This document shows positions 1,617 to 48,204 of a stretch of DNA of 64,000 nucleotides, piece by piece (position 1 is the first letter of the stretch; each line of letters opens with the position of its first letter). The notes beneath the pieces were generated by a model. It searched no databases and had not been told where the DNA came from. It saw only the letters and a program-made list of their open reading frames with translations. Made by a program: the position numbers and the translations under genes. The DNA comes from an uncultured Candidatus Peribacteria bacterium (GTDB lineage: Bacteria > Patescibacteriota > Gracilibacteria > UBA1369 > UBA12473): the NCBI GenBank assembly GCA_964459205.1, contig CAYWKJ010000001.1:2759-66758 (forward strand), written 5' to 3'.

Positions 1617-2793
1617 TCAAAAAGTTTTGGTGCTAGGAATGGGGCGAGAGGGGACAGCGACAGCTGAATATTTAGCTGCTAAATATCCGGATTGCGAAGT
1701 TACGACTGCGGATCAAAAAGATCCTGAAAACTATCCTAGTTCGCTGGCAGAATGGGATTTAGTTTTTGTTTCTCCGGGCATTCCGCCGCATGAACCATTG
1801 CTAAAAACTGCTAAAAAAATTACTACGGCGACGAATTTGTTTTTGGATGATTGCCAAGGAAAAGTCGTAGCAATAACAGGCTCAAAAGGGAAAAGCACAA
1901 CTGCAAGCTTGATTCATGCGATGCTGCCTGGATCGCATTTGGTTGGTAACATTGGAACGGCGGCGTTAGGAATTTTGAAAGATCATAATGACGAGGGGGA
2001 TGTTTTTGTTTTTGAAATGTCTAGCGCGCAGGCGAGTCGGCTTGTGAAGGGTCCGGATGTGGCTGTAATTTTAAATTTATTCCCAGAGCATTTGGATTAT
2101 CACGGGAGTGAAGAGGATTACTATGCGTCCAAATTACAGATTACAATGACGCAAAAAGAGGATGATGTGGTGATTTTTAATTCAAAAATCGCAGATCGCG
2201 TGGAGGGGAGTAGGGCTCAAAAAATGACCTGGGGAGAGGAGGAAATTTCAGAAAACATCCCTTTAATTGGCGAGCATAATAAAAAAAACATTCGCGCGGC
2301 CATGATGGCGGCACAAGTTGTGGGCGGAGAGGATATTAAAAATGGATTGAAAAACTTTAAACCATTGGAGCATCGGCTAGAGTTTGTGACTGAGATTAAT
2401 GGTGTGAAATTTTATAATGATTCAATTTCGACCGCTCCGGAGGCAACAATCGCTGCCTTGGAGGCCCTAGGACAGGTTGGAGTTTTGATTTTAGGAGGAT
2501 TGGATCGCGGGTATAAGTTTGATGAGCTCGCATTAAAAATTAAAGAAAAAGGAGTTCAAAATTTAGTTCTATTTCCAGAAACCAGCGTAAAAATTAAGAC
2601 TGCTTTGGGCAAATTTGAAGGCGAAATTCTGGAAACAGAATCTATGGAAGAAGCTGTGGCTTGGGCGCAAGAAAAAACAACTCCAGGCACTTGTTGCGTG
2701 CTCTCACCAGGAGCCCCAAGTTACAATTTGTATAAGAATTTTGAAGAGAGAGGAAAGGCGTTTAAATCTTCTCTAAAATCTCTCGGCCATTAG
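1603..2793 (+). CDS. murD: UDP-N-acetylmuramoyl-L-alanine--glutamate ligase (MurD family)
   Basis: 396 aa. N-terminal Rossmann-like VLVLGMGREG, Mur ligase P-loop ITGSKGKSTT, and a C-terminal Mur ligase domain. Confidence 0.75.
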   Translation: MDLNNQKVLVLGMGREGTATAEYLAAKYPDCEVTTADQKDPENYPSSLAEWDLVFVSPGIPPHEPLLKTAKKITTATNLFLDDCQGKVVAITGSKGKSTTASLIHAMLPGSHLVGNIGTAALGILKDHNDEGDVFVFEMSSAQASRLVKGPDVAVILNLFPEHLDYHGSEEDYYASKLQITMTQKEDDVVIFNSKIADRVEGSRAQKMTWGEEEISENIPLIGEHNKKNIRAAMMAAQVVGGEDIKNGLKNFKPLEHRLEFVTEINGVKFYNDSISTAPEATIAALEALGQVGVLILGGLDRGYKFDELALKIKEKGVQNLVLFPETSVKIKTALGKFEGEILETESMEEAVAWAQEKTTPGTCCVLSPGAPSYNLYKNFEERGKAFKSSLKSLGH

Positions 2794-3733
2794 TTGTCGC
2801 GATTTTAACGAGCTCTTCCACGTCGTAATAACGGCAGCTTTCGATCAAGAATAGAAGCTCTTCGAACACGTCGCCATCAATAAATGGGCAGAAGTAATCG
2901 TGAACATTATCGACGCCAAGGGCCACTTTTACGCCGGCTTCGACTAACTGCGGAACGGGAGCAATTGAGTTGTGAACCGGGGCCATTTTGTCGCGCATTT
3001 GTACGCCGTCGATCATCGAGCGTGGGCAAACCACTACTGGCATTTCGGCTTCTTTTATAAGCTTGATTACCTCGTGCATGTAATCGTCTTTTTGGGCGGC
3101 GAGCGAGCAGCAGTGAATCGCGTTTACGCGGCCTTGTAGGCCGTGCTCAATGACTTTGCGAGCGAGGAGTTCTGTGTCTTTTTCGTCGGGATCGTTGTTT
3201 TGGTCAATGTGGACGTCGACAGTCTTGTTGTGTTTTTTGGCCATTTCAAAAATGTAATCCAAATGTTCGGCCTGATTAGGTCTGTCGCGAGAGGGGAGGC
3301 CGCCGAGGACATCCACAAATGGGGCCGCTTTTTCGATCCATTCTTGGGCCTCGGGGTTCATGGCACCTTCTAGGACTTGTGAACAGATTTGGATGTCGAT
3401 GCGGTCTTTGTATTTTTCCTTAACTTCGAGGGCGGCCTCAACGCACATCATCCCAACTGTGTTATCTACATCGATGTTGGTGCGCGTTAAGGTGCAGCCT
3501 TGGGCAATCATTCGTTCAGCGCTTAGGGAAATTCGTTTCACCAATCCCTCATGCGTGTATTTTTCTTTAATTTGTTTCCATAAATCCCATTTCACCTCCA
3601 TGGAATCTAAGGTCATTTGTAAGGTTTCGGGGGAGATGACATAAGCTTTGTCAAAATGAGCGTGACAAGATACAAGTCCACCATTTTTAGCGATTTTTTC
3701 GCGGAGTAAAGCGTGAAGATCCCAAGGTTCCAT
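2762..3733 (-). CDS. Metal-dependent amidohydrolase, cytosine-deaminase-like
   Basis: 323 aa. Has SCHAHFDK (HxH-type metal site), internal His residues and GVDNVHD, as in the TIM-barrel amidohydrolase superfamily. Confidence 0.55.
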   Translation of the reverse strand: MEPWDLHALLREKIAKNGGLVSCHAHFDKAYVISPETLQMTLDSMEVKWDLWKQIKEKYTHEGLVKRISLSAERMIAQGCTLTRTNIDVDNTVGMMCVEAALEVKEKYKDRIDIQICSQVLEGAMNPEAQEWIEKAAPFVDVLGGLPSRDRPNQAEHLDYIFEMAKKHNKTVDVHIDQNNDPDEKDTELLARKVIEHGLQGRVNAIHCCSLAAQKDDYMHEVIKLIKEAEMPVVVCPRSMIDGVQMRDKMAPVHNSIAPVPQLVEAGVKVALGVDNVHDYFCPFIDGDVFEELLFLIESCRYYDVEELVKIATTNGREILEKI

Positions 3734-12074: not shown

Positions 12075-12102
12075 TTGACAATTTTAAGGCTTTTGCCATA
12101 AT
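12075..12102 (+). promoter_or_regulatory. Putative promoter of element E1
   Basis: GGGTTGACA, 16 nt spacer, CATAAT. It starts 14 nt after the mfd stop codon. The same GGTTGAC-16-TATAAT layout precedes E2 and E3, and E5 has GGTTGACA with a 17-nt spacer and TAAAAT. Confidence 0.5.
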
Positions 12103-12190
12103 GAGATCCTGAATTTATTCGGGTCTGTTTTTTGGGCGTAAGATTTGATACCCATTTTGGGCGCTAGATTTTCCCCAGCTATGCAGAATT

Positions 12191-12659
12191 GACAACTGGA
12201 TGATAGATTTTGACGTTGGCTATTTGTTACTCATTAAATTGGGTGATGGTTAGCCAGCGTCAATATGCCATAGACGCTTGAGCAGAAGGAGTCCTGATGA
12301 GTAGAGTGATGCTGATCCTGCCAGGAGTATTGGCCTGGCTATGCCGAGGGATCGGGGGAGCTGAAGAGCTATACCCTCTGGTCCCGGCCATGTTTCCCGG
12401 TCGTGAGCCACCTCCGGGACGCGTGGAAAGAGTGCTCCCGCCTGAGGGGCAGCCGGTCACGGTCGTGCTGGTGATGCTCTGTTCGAAGGGCGAGACGTGC
12501 GAGGAGCTGTTCTGCCCGCACGAGGAAATCTGCCCGTATGATGACTGGCCGGTGGGCGGCACCCCAAGCTAGTTTGGGGCTGGAAAGCTAAAAAGCTTGC
12601 GTTTGCGGAAGGGGGAGGCGTCGTCTCCCCTGGTGTGAGGTTTCTATCATCCAGTTGTC
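12191..12659 (+). other. GC-rich helix-bracketed cassette E1 (arm to arm, 469 nt)
   Basis: Perfect 16-nt inverted repeat: GACAACTGGATGATAG (12191-12206) and CTATCATCCAGTTGTC (12644-12659). A 13-bp hairpin at 12210-12263 has one U-G wobble valid only on the + strand. Three GC-rich hairpins precede the 3' arm. Confidence 0.65.
12297..12572 (+). CDS. Hypothetical small protein inside E1 (91 aa, or a shorter Cys-rich C-terminal product)
   Basis: AAGGAG lies 5 nt before the ATG. The distal half has G/C-ending codons. GC-rich DNA also leaves the opposite strand open, so coding status is uncertain. Confidence 0.35.
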   Translation: MSRVMLILPGVLAWLCRGIGGAEELYPLVPAMFPGREPPPGRVERVLPPEGQPVTVVLVMLCSKGETCEELFCPHEEICPYDDWPVGGTPS

Positions 12660-12720
12660 CAAAGCCTTCAAACCAATTATGATTGGCTTACAGAAATTCT
12701 TGATTGCTCTTTTACACCAC

Positions 12721-13156
12721 GGGGATGTCTTGGTTTTGACAGGAAGAGTTCTGTCTTACTCACGGCCGTTACGGGATCGCGCTGTCTCCCGTTAGATCCG
12801 TCCAGCGCATATATAATTGCAAATTCTGAATTTGCTAAATCAGTTAATTACTGGGCAAACAAATTTGTTCCTCAGGGAATGAAGACTGTTCCTGCCTTTG
12901 CTTAATTATCAGATTTACAGATCGCCCTTTGCGCGATCGCGCCTTTTTAAGGATTGCTTTACGACTTATTTAGGCGTCATTTAGTAAAGATCGGAATTAA
13001 AGTGGAGGTTCAGCACTTTATGCCCTAAATTTTCCTTGTCCATTTATGAGAGCTTTTTGTTCGTCCTTTATTCTCATAAACATTAGAACGAACTATAACG
13101 GTAGATGTGGTAGGCAGCCTTTTTGGACGCGGGTTCAACTCCCGCCATCTCCACCA
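12721..13156 (+). ncRNA. ssrA: tmRNA (ssrA), 436 nt
   Basis: 5' GGGGATG pairs with 3' CATCTCC, including the G3-U wobble, followed by ACCA. 5' GGTTTTGACAGG resembles the conserved tmRNA 5' block. The 3' end GGACGCGGGTTCAACTCCCGCCATCTCCACCA nearly matches E. coli ssrA as I recall it. The tag frame runs from GCA at 12819 to TAA at 12903-12905. Confidence 0.9.
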
Positions 13157-19259: not shown

Positions 19260-19337
19260 AATATTGGGGATAAATAAACGGATTTAAGGGCGGACGAAAA
19301 AATAGCACTTTTTAAGGTGCGTGGCAATAGGGTTGGT

Positions 19338-19981
19338 GACAACTGAATGATGAAAGATGGTTCGAGTCTCCCCGCTCCGGACGGCCTCGGGGCCGAACGG
19401 GCGCGGGGGGGGTCGGGACAATCAGCGGGTCGGGGTCGGGATCTCCTCGCGGGACTGCGGGCTGGGGCCGCCGGGCGCAGGGCCGGTGGTGGCGGTCTGG
19501 CGGAAGTAGCTCCGGGCCTCGGTCGAGAACGAGCCGTCCATCACCAAGTTCTTGACGGCGCGGTTCTGGACATCGAACTCGGCGATGTTGTCCTGGAGCG
19601 TCTGCAGGATGTAGTGGCCGTCCCGGAGCTGGCCATCATCGGAGATGCATTCGGGGACCAGCTTGATCGTGAAGAGGTCGCGAACGAGAACGTCGCCCGG
19701 CTTGATCTTCAGCTTGGGCTGCGCGTTCTTGACGACGAAGACGAAGCCACGGCTGGAGTCGCCCGAACAGTTCGGAACAACCACGACGTAGAAGCCATCC
19801 TTGAGGCCGTTTTTGGTGGTGATGCAGTCGCCCGGCAGGACGATGTGGAAAGTAGGCAGTTTTGCCATGTGAACTCCCTATGGGTTAACGGGGGATGGAC
19901 ACCATTGCTAAGAGGGCGCCGCTTTTTACCTTCAAAAAAAGCAAAAAGCGACACCCAAGCAGCATTCATCATTCAGTTGTC
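19338..19981 (-). other. GC-rich helix-bracketed cassette E2 (644 nt, sense on minus strand)
   Basis: Perfect 16-nt inverted repeat GACAACTGAATGATGA (19338-19353 / 19966-19981). A 14-bp hairpin at 19914-19956 has two U-G wobbles valid only on the minus strand. A 3' hairpin sits at 19382-19395. Confidence 0.7.
19422..19868 (-). CDS. Hypothetical protein, cargo of E2 (148 aa), foreign high-GC codon usage
   Basis: GGGAG lies 5 nt before the ATG. Third codon positions are almost all G/C, unlike every housekeeping gene in the window. The amino-acid composition is balanced. Confidence 0.65.
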   Translation of the reverse strand: MAKLPTFHIVLPGDCITTKNGLKDGFYVVVVPNCSGDSSRGFVFVVKNAQPKLKIKPGDVLVRDLFTIKLVPECISDDGQLRDGHYILQTLQDNIAEFDVQNRAVKNLVMDGSFSTEARSYFRQTATTGPAPGGPSPQSREEIPTPTR

Positions 19982-20134
19982 AAAGTCTATGTTTAGAGAG
20001 AGTTTAACAACTAACTAGTAGTATTAAATTCCACTCTAGTAATATAGATCCGGGTCTATCCCCAGAAGTAGATTGCTAGCGCGAAACATTAGCTGCCCAC
20101 CTCTATGGATGACGGAATTAGGGTGGTGAATATT

Positions 20135-20162
20135 ATTATAGTGTTTTTTGAAAAAGAGTCAA
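20135..20162 (-). promoter_or_regulatory. Putative promoter of E2
   Basis: On the minus strand: GGGTTGACT, 16 nt spacer, TATAAT. Confidence 0.5.
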
Positions 20163-20177
20163 CCCTAATGGTTGACT
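20157..20177 (-). terminator. Palindrome AGTCAACC/GGTTGACT followed by a T-run, putative E3 terminator that contains the E2 -35
   Basis: 8-bp stem with a 5-nt loop, then CTTTTTCAAAAAA on the minus strand. It lies 12 nt past the E3 3' arm. Confidence 0.4.
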
Positions 20178-20189
20178 TAAAGGATTGGT

Positions 20190-20848
20190 GACAACTGAAC
20201 GATGGTTTTCCGCTCCGAACGACTCCGTAGTCGAACGGGCGGATCAGGGCTTGTTTAGCGGTTGGGGAGGAGCTTGGAGAAGATCTCGGAGAGAGCTCTT
20301 CTCAGGATTGCGAGGCGAGAGTTTGGTACGATTCTGTAGTAGCTGTGAGTGTAAGGATTTACCAGTGGGCGTTCGTACTTTTTGGTTACAACGACCAGCC
20401 TGTGCGTTGGGGTTGTTGTGGCGTGGGTTTCCCCATCAGTTGTTTTGTATAGAGGATAGGTTCCGCTTTTTAGATTCGCATGGCACCGTACCTCGTTGGT
20501 ATCCTGATCTATCCATGCCCATTGTTGGCGGCAGCCGATGCGTACGATGAACCATTCTTTACCAAAAGGATCATTTTCATCGTACTCATATATGCCTCTA
20601 GTGCGGGCAACGCGTGGCAGGGAAAAACCTTCTGGATCGAGGCCTTTTATGGCTAGATCCTTACGAGAGTGGGTCCATTTTCCCCATGCGAAGAGGAAAG
20701 GAAAAACTTTCAAGGCATTGTCCTATGTTGCAGTCTGCCCCATGGCAGTCCTGCGGGTAAGCACCACTATTTCTGGGTGCCACTTTTTATCTTTAAAATA
20801 GTTAAAAATAAGAAGCGACACCCAGGTGTTATTCATCATTCAGTTGTC
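20190..20848 (-). other. GC-richer helix-bracketed cassette E3 (659 nt, sense on minus strand)
   Basis: Arms are 20190-20205 and 20833-20848. They form 15 contiguous bp on the minus-strand RNA, including one U-G wobble that would be a C/A mismatch on the plus strand. A 13-bp hairpin at 20773-20825 has two wobbles valid only on the minus strand. A 3' hairpin sits at 20220-20233. Confidence 0.7.
20255..20713 (-). CDS. Hypothetical protein, cargo of E3 (152 aa, TTG start as tracked)
   Basis: Long ORF with protein-like composition. No similarity to the E2 cargo. The RBS is weak (AGGAC) and the start codon is uncertain. Confidence 0.5.
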   Translation of the reverse strand: MKVFPFLFAWGKWTHSRKDLAIKGLDPEGFSLPRVARTRGIYEYDENDPFGKEWFIVRIGCRQQWAWIDQDTNEVRCHANLKSGTYPLYKTTDGETHATTTPTHRLVVVTKKYERPLVNPYTHSYYRIVPNSRLAILRRALSEIFSKLLPNR

Positions 20849-20939
20849 AAAATCTATATGTTTAGAGAGAGATTAACTACTAGCTAAAGTGTTAAGGCCT
20901 ACCCTAAGGATATAGGCCTGGATCAATTTCCAGTAGTTT

Positions 20940-44107: not shown

Positions 44108-44136
44108 TTGACGGGAGGGGCCATTTTTAGTAAAAT
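44108..44136 (+). promoter_or_regulatory. Putative sigma70-type promoter driving a plus-strand non-coding transcript
   Basis: TTGACG, 17 nt spacer, TAAAAT. Confidence 0.45.
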
Positions 44137-44143
44137 GTATGCG

Positions 44144-44395
44144 CTCTACTTGGTACGTATTCGATCTTTTAATACTCTCTCACCTATTCTCACCTAAGGG
44201 ATTCCAATATTTCTTTCTGCTGTGGCGGAAAGCGTGAGGTTTCCCACCTGTCTTAACAGGGGTAGTATTTGGATCCCTACGGCCTTAAGCGGAGTGACTT
44301 AAATTTATTTAAGTCCGCGTTTAAGGAGGTCGCCCCAGCTTAGGCTGGGGGGATTTTCTTTATCCCATGGGGAAACCAGGGTTTCCCCCTAGGTA
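44144..44395 (+). ncRNA. Candidate hairpin-dense non-coding RNA (unclassified)
   Basis: No ORF of 60 aa or more. Consecutive strong hairpins: CCTGT-CTTA-ACAGG, a composite stem of about 20 bp at about 44290-44340, CCCCAGC-TTAG-GCTGGGG, GGGAT..ATCCC, and GGGGAAACC/GGTTTCCCC. Confidence 0.3.
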
Positions 44396-44521
44396 ACCCC
44401 CTTCGTTAAGGTTGTTCGTAAAAAGTAAGCTTCGCTAAACTTCGTAAAATTTTCCTCGGGGCCCGCGAGACCCGGAGAAAAATGTTTACTACGTGCGCTC
44501 AGCTTATTTTTGCTCACGCTT
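44396..44521 (+). repeat. Copy A of a conserved module of about 115-130 nt (second copy at 47605-47734)
   Basis: About 94% identity to copy B over roughly 114 nt, by hand alignment. Contains TTGTTC-18-TAAACT, a CTCG..CGAG hairpin, and GGAG followed by ATG of a tiny sORF (44482-44553, MFTTCAQLIFAHAFYILAYQKRL). Confidence 0.7.
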
Positions 44522-44551
44522 TTTATATTTTGGCGTATCAAAAAAGATTGT

Positions 44552-45046
44552 GACAGCACGAGTTTTGGTGGTGGTTAAAGGCGGACCCATGGGCCCGGGA
44601 GGGGGACTCTTCTCGCGGCGCTCGGCGCCGGTCGTCGAATGAGTCCTCGCCTCCTCTGGCGGCCGCAGGTGGGCACTGGGGGAGCGTTCATGGTTGTTCT
44701 CGCCGTCGTCACAGCGGCCGAAGCCACTGCTCAGGGTCGAACGCACACAGTTTCATTCCCAGCACCGGACTTAGATTCCGGTAGTAGTCGAAGTATTCAG
44801 TTTTGCGGTCGCCTAGTAGACGTTCTACTAGGACTTTGGGAACCCGATCAGCCGGCGTATGGCTAGGTCAGGTCCAGCGCCTCGTGGTACGTGATCTCGA
44901 TGTTGCGACCGTGCGTGTCCAGGATCTCGATGTGGTAGTGCGCCTGCATGGCTTCACCTCAAACCTTTCTCCCATTTCTGGGCGACAACCTCTTATACAG
45001 AAGATGAGAAGCTGGCGTCCAGAAATGAGTTAAAACCCGTGCTGTC
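44552..45046 (-). other. GC-rich helix-bracketed cassette E4 (495 nt, sense on minus strand)
   Basis: Arms are 44552-44566 (GACAGCACGAGTTTT) and 45032-45046 (AAAACCCGTGCTGTC). They form 15 bp on the minus-strand RNA with one G-U wobble that would be an A/C mismatch on the plus strand. Confidence 0.65.
44863..44949 (-). CDS. Small ORF in E4 (28 aa, MQAHYHIEILDTHGRNIEITYHEALDLT)
   Basis: GAGGTG lies 5 nt before the ATG. 27 of 28 codons end in G or C. Confidence 0.4.
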   Translation of the reverse strand: MQAHYHIEILDTHGRNIEITYHEALDLT

Positions 45047-45139
45047 AAATGTCAGCCTGCTTTAATGAGGGGTAGCCGTTCCTTGGGGTGGAAGACGAAT
45101 CCTACAATTGCTGCAGGGAAGCCAAAAAGGCTTGGTTTG

Positions 45140-45169
45140 ACCTTAGCGAAGGGCGGGGCTTATTGTCAA
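45140..45169 (-). promoter_or_regulatory. Putative promoter of E4
   Basis: On the minus strand: TTGACA, 18 nt spacer, TAAGGT. This is weaker than the others, but the spacing to the 5' arm (93 nt) matches E1, E3 and E5. Confidence 0.3.
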
Positions 45170-45328
45170 TAAATTTTGCTTATTGACAAAATGGGGCAGG
45201 ACGACGTCGCACCCCCGGCGGTCAGGTTGGGACTTAAACTGGATATGTCAAACCTGTGCTTTAAGTCTTTTTTACCTTGCCCCTGATCGCTCCTTATGTT
45301 AAATTTGCGCTCGCCGACTACCAATTAA

Positions 45329-47604: not shown

Positions 47605-47734
47605 ACCCCCTTTTCCCTAAAAGGTTGTTCGCAAAAAGTAAGTTTCGCTAAACTTCGTAAAATTTTCCTCGGGACCCACGAGACCCGGAGAAAAATGTTT
47701 ACTACGTGCGCTCGACTTATTTTTGCTCACGCTT
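47605..47734 (+). repeat. Copy B of the conserved module (see 44396-44521)
   Basis: Same layout as copy A. The sORF at 47695-47742 encodes MFTTCARLIFAHAYL. The module ends 17 nt before the E5 3' arm. Confidence 0.7.
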
Positions 47735-47751
47735 ATTTATAATTGAGTTGG

Positions 47752-48112
47752 GACAAGGTGATAGTGAGTTCGTGTCCCTCCTGCCGCCGTATATGGGCAG
47801 GTAGGGAGCGCTCGAAGAGTGTTTCAATGATAGTTTCCGCCTAAAGGCGTCTTTTCAAAGAATATCTCACCAATGGGAGCTGATCGCTACGCCGCTGCTA
47901 GAGGCCGCGGAGAGCGGCTTCGATGCCAGCGACGAGACATCCAATCCCGCCGGACACGCTAAGCCCAATAATGAAAAGACTCATTGAGCCTCCTATGTAA
48001 GAGAATGCGCCCACAAGGGACGCGACTAACCTTGGCTCATTCCGAAGGCAGCCACAAACTGGTTTTACAAATAAGCTCATGGCTGGCTTCGGAAGCCTAC
48101 TATCACCTTGTC
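47752..48112 (-). other. GC-rich helix-bracketed cassette E5 (361 nt, sense on minus strand)
   Basis: Perfect 14-nt inverted repeat GACAAGGTGATAGT (47752-47765 / 48099-48112). A hairpin of about 17 bp at 48034-48097 lies next to the 5' arm. Confidence 0.65.
47898..47984 (-). CDS. Small hydrophobic peptide in E5 (28 aa, MSLFIIGLSVSGGIGCLVAGIEAALRGL), type-I-toxin-like
   Basis: Consensus AGGAGG lies 4 nt before the ATG. It predicts a single TM helix rich in small residues. The tracked 60-aa version starts inside the 5' hairpin with no RBS. Confidence 0.45.
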   Translation of the reverse strand: MSLFIIGLSVSGGIGCLVAGIEAALRGL

Positions 48113-48204
48113 AAATCCTGCTTAGGCACGAGAAACGAATACGCATCGGGGATGGATTCGTATCTACGGTTGATTTGCAGGCCTGGGCAATTCCCAGGAG
48201 GGGT

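Follow-up and report, generated by a model that had tools for sequence, protein, structure and literature searches.

What is the GC-rich segment, closed by a long inverted repeat, that lies beside tRNA-Thr in the genome of an uncultured Candidatus Peribacteria bacterium? The segment, which we call E4, occupies positions 44550-45049 on the minus strand of the stretch of DNA analysed here (64,000 nt of contig CAYWKJ010000001.1, hereafter the window), between a 6S-like RNA gene and tRNA-Thr. Comparison with related species indicates that E4 is neither the end of a transposon nor a dead gene; it is a conserved RNA structure. It is one of at least five units with a common architecture in this genome (E1 to E5, all in the window) and, as far as sequence can tell, belongs to a hitherto undescribed family of clamped RNAs that are GC-rich and carry small open reading frames (ORFs) in marine Peregrinibacteria. 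The flanking M50 protease assigns the window to this marine group (Candidatus Peregrinibacteria/Peribacteria), a branch of the candidate phyla radiation. We propose, with a probability of about one half, that E4 is an independent minus-strand unit that would give rise to an end-clamped, structure-locked small-protein or dual-function RNA.

Anatomy and predicted fold of E4

Read along the minus strand, E4 consists of the following parts, in which P1, P2 and P3 are helices and hp1 and hp2 are hairpins of the leader.

45140-45169, minus strand: promoter, with -35 TTGACA (45164-45169), an 18-nt spacer and -10 TAAGGT (45140-45145)
45050-45133, minus strand: 5' leader of ~84 nt, predicted to fold into the 5'-terminal hairpin hp1 (about 45119-45133) and the long bipartite hairpin hp2 (about 45056-45117; closing stem CCUGC/GCAGG, C-rich apical loop ACCCCAA)
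45032-45049, minus strand: 5' arm of P1 with the preceding UUU, sense UUUGACAGCACGGGUUUU
44973-45027, minus strand: hairpin P2, immediately 3' of the P1 5' arm
44863-44960, minus strand: Shine-Dalgarno (SD) sequence GAGGTG (44955-44960), 5 nt, ATG, and the 28-codon ORF (44863-44949; peptide MQAHYHIEILDTHGRNIEITYHEALDLT)
44812-44832, minus strand: hairpin P3, 3' of the stop codon, stem CCUAGUAGA-ACG-UCUACUAGG
44567-44811, minus strand: GC-rich structured 3' domain, without a convincing ORF as judged by translations, periodicity and fold
44547-44566, minus strand: 3' arm of P1 and flank ACAAU, sense arm AAAACUCGUGCUGUC
44540-44546, minus strand: U-tract CUUUUUU, 5 nt past the 3' arm

Most of this anatomy had been noticed in an initial annotation and is present as described. 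The left arm GACAGCACGAGTTTT (44552-44566) and the right arm AAAACCCGTGCTGTC (45032-45046) form 15 pairs, of which 14 are Watson-Crick; the remaining one reads G-U in the minus-sense RNA but would be A/C on the plus strand. The heptamer TTTGACA stands on the minus strand at the E4 end (45043-45049). The proposed promoter exists, but the distance from the end of its -10 to the arm G is 91 nt, not 93 nt. It is missing from the list of our consensus scanner because its -10 agrees at only 3/6 positions. The ORF, said to consist almost wholly of codons ending in G or C, has a GC content at the three codon positions (GC1/2/3) of 0.61/0.25/0.96 and a strong 3-periodicity, with host genes at a GC3 of 0.28-0.37. 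It encodes a hydrophilic peptide with many His and acidic residues. The perfect 8-bp hairpin with an ACG loop is found at 44813-44831 (CTAGTAGA-ACG-TCTACTAG) and reaches 9 bp once the flanking C-G is counted.

The ~300 nt beyond the ORF and its hairpin (60-70% GC) hold no ORF with a start codon and an SD in any translation, as the initial annotation had said. They contain the hairpin CCGGA-AUCUAAG-UCCGG at 44765-44781. A 52-codon frame is open in the +1 register relative to the 28-codon ORF (44720-44869, minus strand; E4 sense nt 181-330); it has no start codon and weak periodicity, and could be what is left of a longer ORF in an ancestor or a product of chance. The U-tract may be a termination point. 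It is kept in two related species but is not general to the family, as it is absent from E1 and E5, and E2 and E3 have separate terminator hairpins.

How far does the inverted repeat exceed chance? We counted 15-nt inverted repeats that have no more than one mismatch and arms separated by 200-1000 nt, in the window and in its dinucleotide shuffles. A shuffled window held 2.9 +/- 1.7 of them and the real window nine, six of which belong to the elements. A single arm pair is therefore expected by chance, and the arms alone are not significant. TTTGACA by itself is not enriched in the window (13 observed vs 13.7 expected). Across roughly half a megabase of Peregrinibacteria loci, the strict pattern TTGACA + arm ... 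arm' + TGTC, with G-U permitted, matched the five elements of the window, the E4 orthologues and no other sequence.

Folding, which had been suggested as a check, gave -204.6 kcal/mol for the 511-nt E4 RNA vs -169 +/- 6 for shuffles (z = -5.9). P1 was predicted at high probability in all eight elements folded (8/8), and in E4 the pair probabilities between the first 28 and the last 28 nt summed to 15.8. In the minimum-free-energy fold of the window copy, the SD/AUG region is paired with the 3'-domain segment CAUGGGUCCGCCUUUAACC (nt 461-480), just inside the 3' arm. Across the conserved E4 helices the sense strand has 16 G-U cells vs 6 A-C cells. This G-U excess, together with the orientation of promoter, SD and ORF, indicates a minus-sense RNA.

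P1 is conserved and P2 and P3 covary among species

The orthologue comparison covers three species: that of the window and those represented by loci L002 and L004, whose flanking M50 proteases are 89% and 79% identical to that of the window. In both relatives E4 occupies the same site next to tRNA-Thr. A fourth species, L003 (M50 protease 83% identical), has only a truncated leader, TTTGACA and a sequence like D1, the repeat that follows E4 in the window. The entire unit is absent from the more distant L086 and L087 (DUF3352 protein 63% identical). A scan of metagenomes with the leader core gave further matches, all of them from the L004 species and with an identical element; this species attains high coverage in samples such as those from Saanich Inlet. 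The E4 -35 is invariant in L002 and L004, and a -10-like hexamer stands at the equivalent position (TACATT, TAAAGT).

The 5' arm of P1 is identical at 16/16 positions in the three species. The L004 3' arm, AAAGCUCGUGUUGUC, has three non-Watson-Crick positions, all G-U or U-G on the sense RNA; two arise from L004-specific C-to-U changes and the remaining G-U is common to all three species. L002 has lost 3 nt of the 3' arm at the base of P1 and gained 3 bp at its top. In sum, 12 pairs are invariant, two have changed from GC/UA to GU/UG and none is broken within the helix. The initial annotation had held that its proposal would fall if the arms were neither conserved nor compensated in homologous loci; apart from the L002 deletion at the base, pairing is kept.

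The internal helices are conserved as structures. P2 has 10 base pairs with compensatory double changes among the three species. P3 has four compensatory pairs between the window and L002, where the aligned hairpin is CCCUGACGG...CCGUCAGG (stems CUAGUAGA/UCUACUAG in the window and CUGACGG/CCGUCAG in L002). L004 has an 8-bp hairpin, CUCGGCGA...UCGCCGGG, just past the stop codon, which we read by eye as MAFFT left it unaligned. As relatives have different stem sequences and the same fold, P3 is a conserved structure. Together P2 and P3 show 14 compensatory pairs; none of 500 column shuffles reached this pair count or the covariation score, and controls in which the partners were slid by 1-3 columns gave 0-5 compensatory pairs. 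Across the E4 orthologue helices, 94.7% of cells are paired. The 3' domain is itself partly homologous to that of L002, through the CCGGA hairpin and a block beginning CCCACCUGCGG....

These results bear on the tail, for which the initial annotation had offered a decayed gene or a structured RNA. Conserved hairpins with changed stems and the lack of any match to a gene fragment favour the structured RNA; a coding remnant is less favoured. They bear equally on the view that E4 as a whole is a decayed, horizontally acquired gene next to a chance inverted repeat. Its GC-rich composition would fit, as would the weakly periodic 52-codon frame that follows the ORF, and chance alone would give about three inverted repeats of 15 nt per window. 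Against this, the arms are kept in two other species with only pairing-compatible changes, the internal helices covary, the architecture occurs five times, and no frame has a homologue in the Pfam, phage or plasmid searches. This view, already disfavoured, strikes us as extremely unlikely.

By sequence search, E4 matches no described RNA, protein or mobile-element family. In Rfam 15 at the gathering threshold, the whole window gave only tmRNA and three tRNAs; the classes covered include OLE, GOLLD, ROOL, HEARO, raiA, riboswitches, ribozymes and group I/II introns. Relaxed scans over E4 and E2/E3 gave chance miRNA-like and other sub-threshold matches (E 0.3-10). All ORFs carried by the units were compared with Pfam, PHROGs, PADLOC and NCBIfam with no match. 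The same was true of six frames of the E4 GC-rich tail against Pfam, E4 DNA against phage and plasmid collections (BLAST), the read-through E4 peptide against plasmids (tblastn) and the E2 protein against phage and plasmid collections (tblastn). Thus, the GC-rich stretch was not recognised as a known gene fragment; the initial annotation had named a match to one with no relation to the arms as fatal to its proposal. Among 5.8 billion clusters the E2 and E3 proteins found no homologue, or only themselves. A full HMMER search with E2 gave weak matches to strands of Ig/PKD-type repeats only, and its AlphaFold model was unusable (mean confidence score, pLDDT, 39). Viral contigs had no match to the leader pattern and seven to the E1-3 arm pattern, all without partner arms, which we take as chance. 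The leader regular expression was not specific outside the known copies.

Several candidates were tried and rejected. The 5' TTGACA is not an internal promoter, as no element has a -10 at 16-18 nt from it. A tmRNA-like RNA, a permuted-intron circular RNA, flanking ribozymes, a retron and REP/RAYT elements (repetitive extragenic palindromes and their transposases) were discarded on the lack of Rfam matches and of a reverse transcriptase, and on the absence of D1 from E1-E3. For a retron in particular (msr-msd with a1/a2 repeats), no reverse-transcriptase domain is encoded in the window.

Conservation is uneven along the unit. The leader is 83-89% identical between the window and L002/L004, and the flanking genome about 73-80%. 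A leader core of 62-68 nt is 98% identical in L003 and nearly invariant across the four species. Between species, the E4 interior is 16-58% identical, whereas the leader and 5' arm are 83-100% and the flanking genome about 78%. At the position of the E4 ORF, L004 has a 40-codon, His/Asp-rich ORF with the local similarity DT[H/D]xR[N/I]IE. Both small ORFs have a GC3 of about 0.95, and a GC3 of about 0.9 or higher is retained in both diverged E4 orthologues.

Because the leader and the helices are better conserved than the ORF, a dual or regulatory role like that of RNAIII is a serious alternative for E4. RNAIII of S. aureus is 514 nt long and encodes the 26-aa delta-haemolysin. In general architecture the two are alike: both are ~500 nt long and place a short ORF within the 5' third, both have a long 3' domain rich in structure, and in both, domains are closed off by long-range helices. 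C-rich hairpin loops are a further likeness, and in our family these are found at the apex of the E4 and E5 leaders. However, E4 has no sequence or Rfam relationship to RNAIII and no known targets, and its paralogous chassis carries ORFs of 60-150 codons. Taken to its limit, this alternative holds that E4 is an essentially non-coding regulatory or structural RNA that acts through its leader loop and 3' domain, with an incidental or vestigial 28-codon ORF. The nearly invariant leader core, the lack of ORF conservation in L002 and the roughly 300-nt tail with conserved hairpins and no ORF all speak for it. Yet the ORF has a good SD and an extreme codon-position periodicity (GC2 0.25, GC3 0.96), E1 and E2 share its chassis and are clearly protein-coding, we can name no target and Rfam holds nothing similar. 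We regard a purely non-coding E4 as rather unlikely.

The five units, their ORFs and known elements

The claim that the window holds further elements with different arms, minus-sense RNA in the case of E4, and the same architecture is upheld: base composition, repeat searches and inspection of the sequence reveal five units, and their P1 helices vary and yet remain paired. The units other than E4, and the repeat D1, are as follows.

12189-12662, plus strand: E1, with promoter 12075-12102 and a 91-codon ORF; ends 60 nt before tmRNA
19337-19984, minus strand: E2, with a 148-codon orphan ORF, GC3 0.89
20188-20851, minus strand: E3, with the E2 chassis and an unrelated 152-codon ORF, GC3 0.51
47750-48115, minus strand: E5, with a 60-codon hydrophobic ORF; followed by the second D1 copy and adjoining tRNA-Trp
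44408-44524 and 47621-47737, minus strand: D1, a 117-nt direct repeat, sense-downstream of E4 and of E5, 94% identical

All units have the layout sigma-70 promoter, leader, (T/A)TTGACA with the 5' arm, P2, ORF, GC-rich hairpin and 3' arm. Leaders are 80-144 nt long, and the promoters of E1, E2, E3 and E5 score 11/12 consensus matches. The TTTGACA flank that the initial annotation ascribed to the elements in general occurs in E2, E3 and E5 as in E4; E1 and the L002 orthologue have ATTGACA instead. The 3' arms end in TGTC, followed by (A/C)C..AA, and the arms are spaced 360-660 nt apart and enclose the ORF. The ORFs of E1/E2/E3/E4/E5 have 91/148/152/28/60 codons, with a recognisable SD in E1-E4 and none in E5. 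Across the family, the first four pairs of P1 (GACA/UGUC) are invariant, 11/17 positions vary and 95% of cells are paired, a partly circular test, given that inverted repeats were the means of finding the members. Outside the 4-bp core, there is no relation between the arms of E1-3, those of E4 and those of E5. A P2 analogue is found at the equivalent position in E1, E2, E3 and E5. The two-hairpin leader layout recurs with different sequence in E1, E5 and a sixth unit, E6, found in L004; the E3 leader has a similar layout without the CUGC/GCAG closing stem. The clamped-RNA family takes up about 5% of this 64-kb stretch, which is core genome (MurD, RNase J, DnaN, Mfd, EF-P, two penicillin-binding proteins, PheST, TopA, SmpB, NadE, L28, L33). 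The units lie beside tRNA and tmRNA genes.

E2 and E3 differ from one another in an instructive way. Their promoters, leaders, arms, P2 and 3' hairpins are 75-90% identical, whereas the segments with SD and ORF are unrelated, and the boundaries are sharp. Two pairs of the 3' hairpin are compensatory (CGGCC/GGCCG vs CGACU/AGUCG). The swapped segment lies within P2 and the 3' hairpin, not at the arms. The two units form a tandem pair (19337-20851, minus strand) in which the -35 of E2 and the E3 terminator hairpin (20177-20157) overlap.

Such a swap raises the question of whether the family works at the level of DNA, with the arms and the GACA/TGTC core as recombination sites and foreign GC-rich ORFs exchanged in a 'landing pad' of promoter and leader. 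On this account, as with integron attC sites, recognition would rest on a hairpin form or on structure. Besides the E2/E3 pair, the account would cover the orphan status of the ORFs (four of which, in E1, E2, E4 and the L004 unit E6, have a GC3 well above that of the host), the divergence of the E4 interior relative to leader and 5' arm, and the proximity to tRNA and tmRNA genes. It would also cover the gain, loss and decay of units among relatives: a remnant in L003, none in L086/L087, and a remnant of the sixth unit at 45208-45265. The likeness to integron cassettes extends to the size of a single small ORF, orphan cargo of foreign composition, structure-defined sites with a short conserved core and variable paired arms, and one tandem pair (E3-E2).

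The differences are considerable. attC sites are compact (57-150 bp) and follow the ORF, whereas the arms here enclose it; the core is GACA/TGTC and not RYYYAAC/GTTRRRY (R''/R'); and each unit has its own promoter and leader, mostly as a scattered singleton. The 64-kb window encodes no recombinase, integrase (including IntI-type tyrosine recombinases), transposase or reverse transcriptase among the Pfam matches of ORFs of at least 110 aa, which are housekeeping genes only. No direct repeat that could be a target-site duplication flanks any of the five elements. Four metagenome DNA runs contained no excision joints, empty-site joints or cargo variants, and no copies were found in phage and plasmid collections or viral contigs. 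Finally, the swap between E2 and E3 avoids the arms, the arm mismatches are G-U on the transcribed strand, and P2 and P3 covary as RNA helices. Exchange of cassettes at the DNA level thus seems doubtful to us.

A transposon with terminal inverted repeats, or a miniature inverted-repeat transposable element (MITE), was rejected: there is no target-site duplication, the arms differ among copies, and homology extends past the arms into leader, promoter and D1. E4 shares with 23S rRNA intervening sequences and Correia-type MITEs, whose transcripts give hairpins for RNase III, terminal inverted repeats that pair in the transcript and a sporadic distribution among relatives, and some rRNA intervening sequences carry a small ORF, as E4 does. 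Unlike both, E4 lies outside rRNA, its arms differ from those of other copies and it has no target duplication. It is also much larger than MITEs and has conserved internal helices and its own promoter.

D1 offers a further reading, that the P1-closed segment interrupts a small RNA made of leader and D1 and is excised at P1 by RNase III, as happens in rRNA. A conserved leader and D1 do flank a variable insert in E4 and E5, L003 has leader and D1-like sequence without the insert, and so long and perfect a stem could plausibly be cut by RNase III. However, D1 is absent from E1, E2 and E3, E4 and E5 have D1 copies that are 94% identical but leaders of different sequence, and a U-tract stands between P1 and D1. 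The L003 leader lacks hp1 and the promoter and so looks like a remnant rather than an intact gene. We think this reading very unlikely. D1 occurs as two variants in L002, L003 and L004, and may be a 3' domain of the transcripts, a separate small RNA or a repeat. One copy follows the plus-strand terminator of the 6S-like gene and the other a likely plus-strand terminator, read by eye, after tRNA-Trp.

The sixth unit, E6, lies in L004 (2453-3411, plus strand) between the E4 promoter and tRNA-Thr. Its GC-rich ORF of 155-157 codons has an N-terminus that resembles a signal peptide by eye, and its flanks form a perfect 16-nt inverted repeat, AAAGCACAGGTTTGAC / GTCAAACCTGTGCTTT. E6 is similar to E4 in its arm core (AGCACRGGTTT) and in its leader (GTAGGATTTGT), and UCUUUUUU, which is like the E4 U-tract, follows the E6 3' arm. 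The window (45208-45265) and L003 retain only the 3' end of E6, right arm included. At 45160-45190 of the window, two -35 hexamers stand back to back as a palindrome, ATTGTCAATA ... TTATTGACAA, which looks like a divergent promoter region shared by E4 and the lost E6.

Short upstream frames were also seen. The 5' arms of E1-E3 (12189-12215, 19960-19984, 20825-20851) contain ATG or ATGATG, which open frames of 17, 87 and 38 codons through P2, none with an SD. In E4, a TTG at the base of P1 opens a 29-codon frame that ends inside the SD of the main ORF. These short upstream frames of E1-E4 are probably untranslated.

A model for E4 and the neighbouring features

Our model draws on type I toxin mRNAs. 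The hok mRNA is locked by a long-distance interaction between its 5' and 3' regions, and its SD is hidden until processing. In AapA1 of H. pylori, a 5'-3' long-distance interaction likewise stabilises the mRNA and hides the SD until the 3' end is processed (PMC5416894). Like aapA1/IsoA1 and hok/Sok, E4 is a stand-alone small-ORF transcription unit with its own promoter; its predicted P1 would join the 5' region to the 3' end of a compact full-length RNA; and it has multiple chromosomal paralogues (E1, E2, E3 and E5). In the toxin mRNAs the SD is sequestered and processing activates, whereas SD pairing in E4 is a feature of the window-copy fold.

We propose that E4 is transcribed into an RNA of roughly 0.6 kb, or 0.7 kb with read-through into D1, which would be GC-enriched and highly structured. 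A P1 of 15-16 bp with the invariant GACA/UGUC base would tie nt ~90-105 to the 3' end and enclose P2, the SD with the 28-codon ORF, P3 and a structured tail of roughly 250 nt. By analogy with the toxin mRNAs, this clamp and the terminal hairpin may make a compact RNA that resists RNase J and 3' exonucleases; as context, the window includes a gene for RNase J. With the RNA folded at full length, the SD/AUG would be paired with the segment just inside the 3' arm and translation held off. The lock may be opened by processing or by a trans-acting factor, for instance through cleavage of P1 by a double-strand RNase or by 3' trimming. The product would be a small peptide, and the conserved C-rich leader loop and 3' domain possibly act as a regulatory RNA. 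In E1, E2, E3 and E5 this chassis is combined with unrelated small, mostly GC-rich orphan ORFs.

We do not file E4 as a type I toxin because its peptide is hydrophilic, no antisense promoter was found and the SD lock is not seen in the consensus of the three species. Small hydrophobic membrane toxins have under about 60 aa; the E4 peptide is not hydrophobic and its L004 counterpart is His/Asp-rich. The ORFs of E2/E3, at about 150 codons, are also unlike such toxins. Further, E4 is two to three times longer than the toxin mRNAs, has a conserved two-hairpin leader upstream of the clamp and has a GC content far above that of its host. A consensus scan, which may miss weak or non-canonical sites, found no plus-strand sigma-70-like promoter for an antisense antitoxin within 44552-45046, E2, E3 or E5. 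Only E5 among the cargo fits the hydrophobic criterion: its ORF (47898-48080, minus strand) encodes a 60-aa, glycine-zipper-like peptide (MSLFVKPVCGCLRNEPRLVASLVGAFSYIGGSMSLFIIGLSVSGGIGCLVAGIEAALRGL, with an internal GG) that resembles a toxin or bacteriocin. No SD precedes the E5 ORF, and in the predicted fold all of its start codon is base-paired.

A number of observations weigh against our proposal. The small ORF is not conserved in L002, which has an unrelated 25-codon ORF, and BLASTP gave no significance to its similarity with the ORF of L004; thus, the peptide may not be the point. The peptide is hydrophilic, which sets it apart from type I toxins, and the consensus scan revealed no antisense promoter. 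Only the window copy shows pairing of the SD with the 3' segment, which the consensus of the three species lacks. Folding energy over the whole element gives no preference to the sense over the antisense strand, although it is uninformative here because the sense strand is C-rich, a composition effect. No RNA run was found that contains the E4 locus, and three metatranscriptomes from the same study had zero coverage and are uninformative. Moreover, a model at the level of RNA does not explain why GC3 is about 0.95 in a genome where it is about 0.33, why the interior is much more diverged than the flanks, with a jump in rate at the P1 boundary, or why E2 and E3 combine a common chassis with different ORFs. 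These three observations keep the cassette-exchange reading alive.

In a more radical and quite improbable view, the units are a modular RNA 'expression capsule' system restricted to this lineage of the candidate phyla radiation (CPR), with a conserved chassis, orphan ORFs that are repeatedly replaced or rapidly diversified, and foreign codon composition (GC3 up to 0.96). In one radical form, cassettes would be exchanged through the structured arms independently of a recombinase or by one encoded in trans. In another, the units would produce nuclease-resistant, clamped mRNAs for use outside the producer, such as translation in the GC-rich host of an epibiont, which would explain the non-native codon usage.

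CPR bacteria (Patescibacteria) have tiny genomes and are thought to have little regulatory RNA. If our proposal for E4 is right, this would be, to our knowledge, the first CPR case of the 'locked mRNA' principle of type I toxins, and it would provide a signature in sequence and structure for small-protein genes overlooked by gene callers and homology searches. The GC3 of at least 0.9, the fast interior and the swapped ORFs make these units a good place to seek a new mode of gene turnover or host-symbiont interaction.

The surroundings of the units deserve brief mention. A probable 6S RNA gene lies at 44108-44350 on the plus strand: Rfam RF00013 matches at 44140-44299 with 34.7 bits (gathering threshold 46.4, E 1.6e-4), the promoter is TTGACG-17-TAAAAT (44108-44136) and the terminator lies at 44333-44350. 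The region aligns at ~78-80% with L002 and L004, and recognisably similar sequence is found in L086 and L087. In the gap between E1 and tmRNA (12189-12721, plus strand), the sole promoter-like site uses TTGTCC (12655), the end of the E1 3' arm, as -35 and TATGAT as -10. Thus, tmRNA may be co-transcribed with E1 or started from within its end. The tmRNA itself (12721-13156, plus strand) is long, at 436 nt, and has a long tag peptide, ANSEFAKSVNYWANKFVPQGMKTVPAFA.

An amidohydrolase gene (2762-3733, minus strand) has a GC content of 0.48-0.50 vs about 0.42 for the window and shows no element architecture. Lastly, one strain of the L004 species (L091, 825-2411) has, upstream of its M50 gene, a large serine recombinase (Resolvase/Recombinase/Zn_ribbon_recom), a small gene with a helix-turn-helix domain and a 100-aa ORF without annotation; in other contigs of that species the gene calls at this place are different. 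This has the look of an insertion specific to the strain and unconnected with E4.

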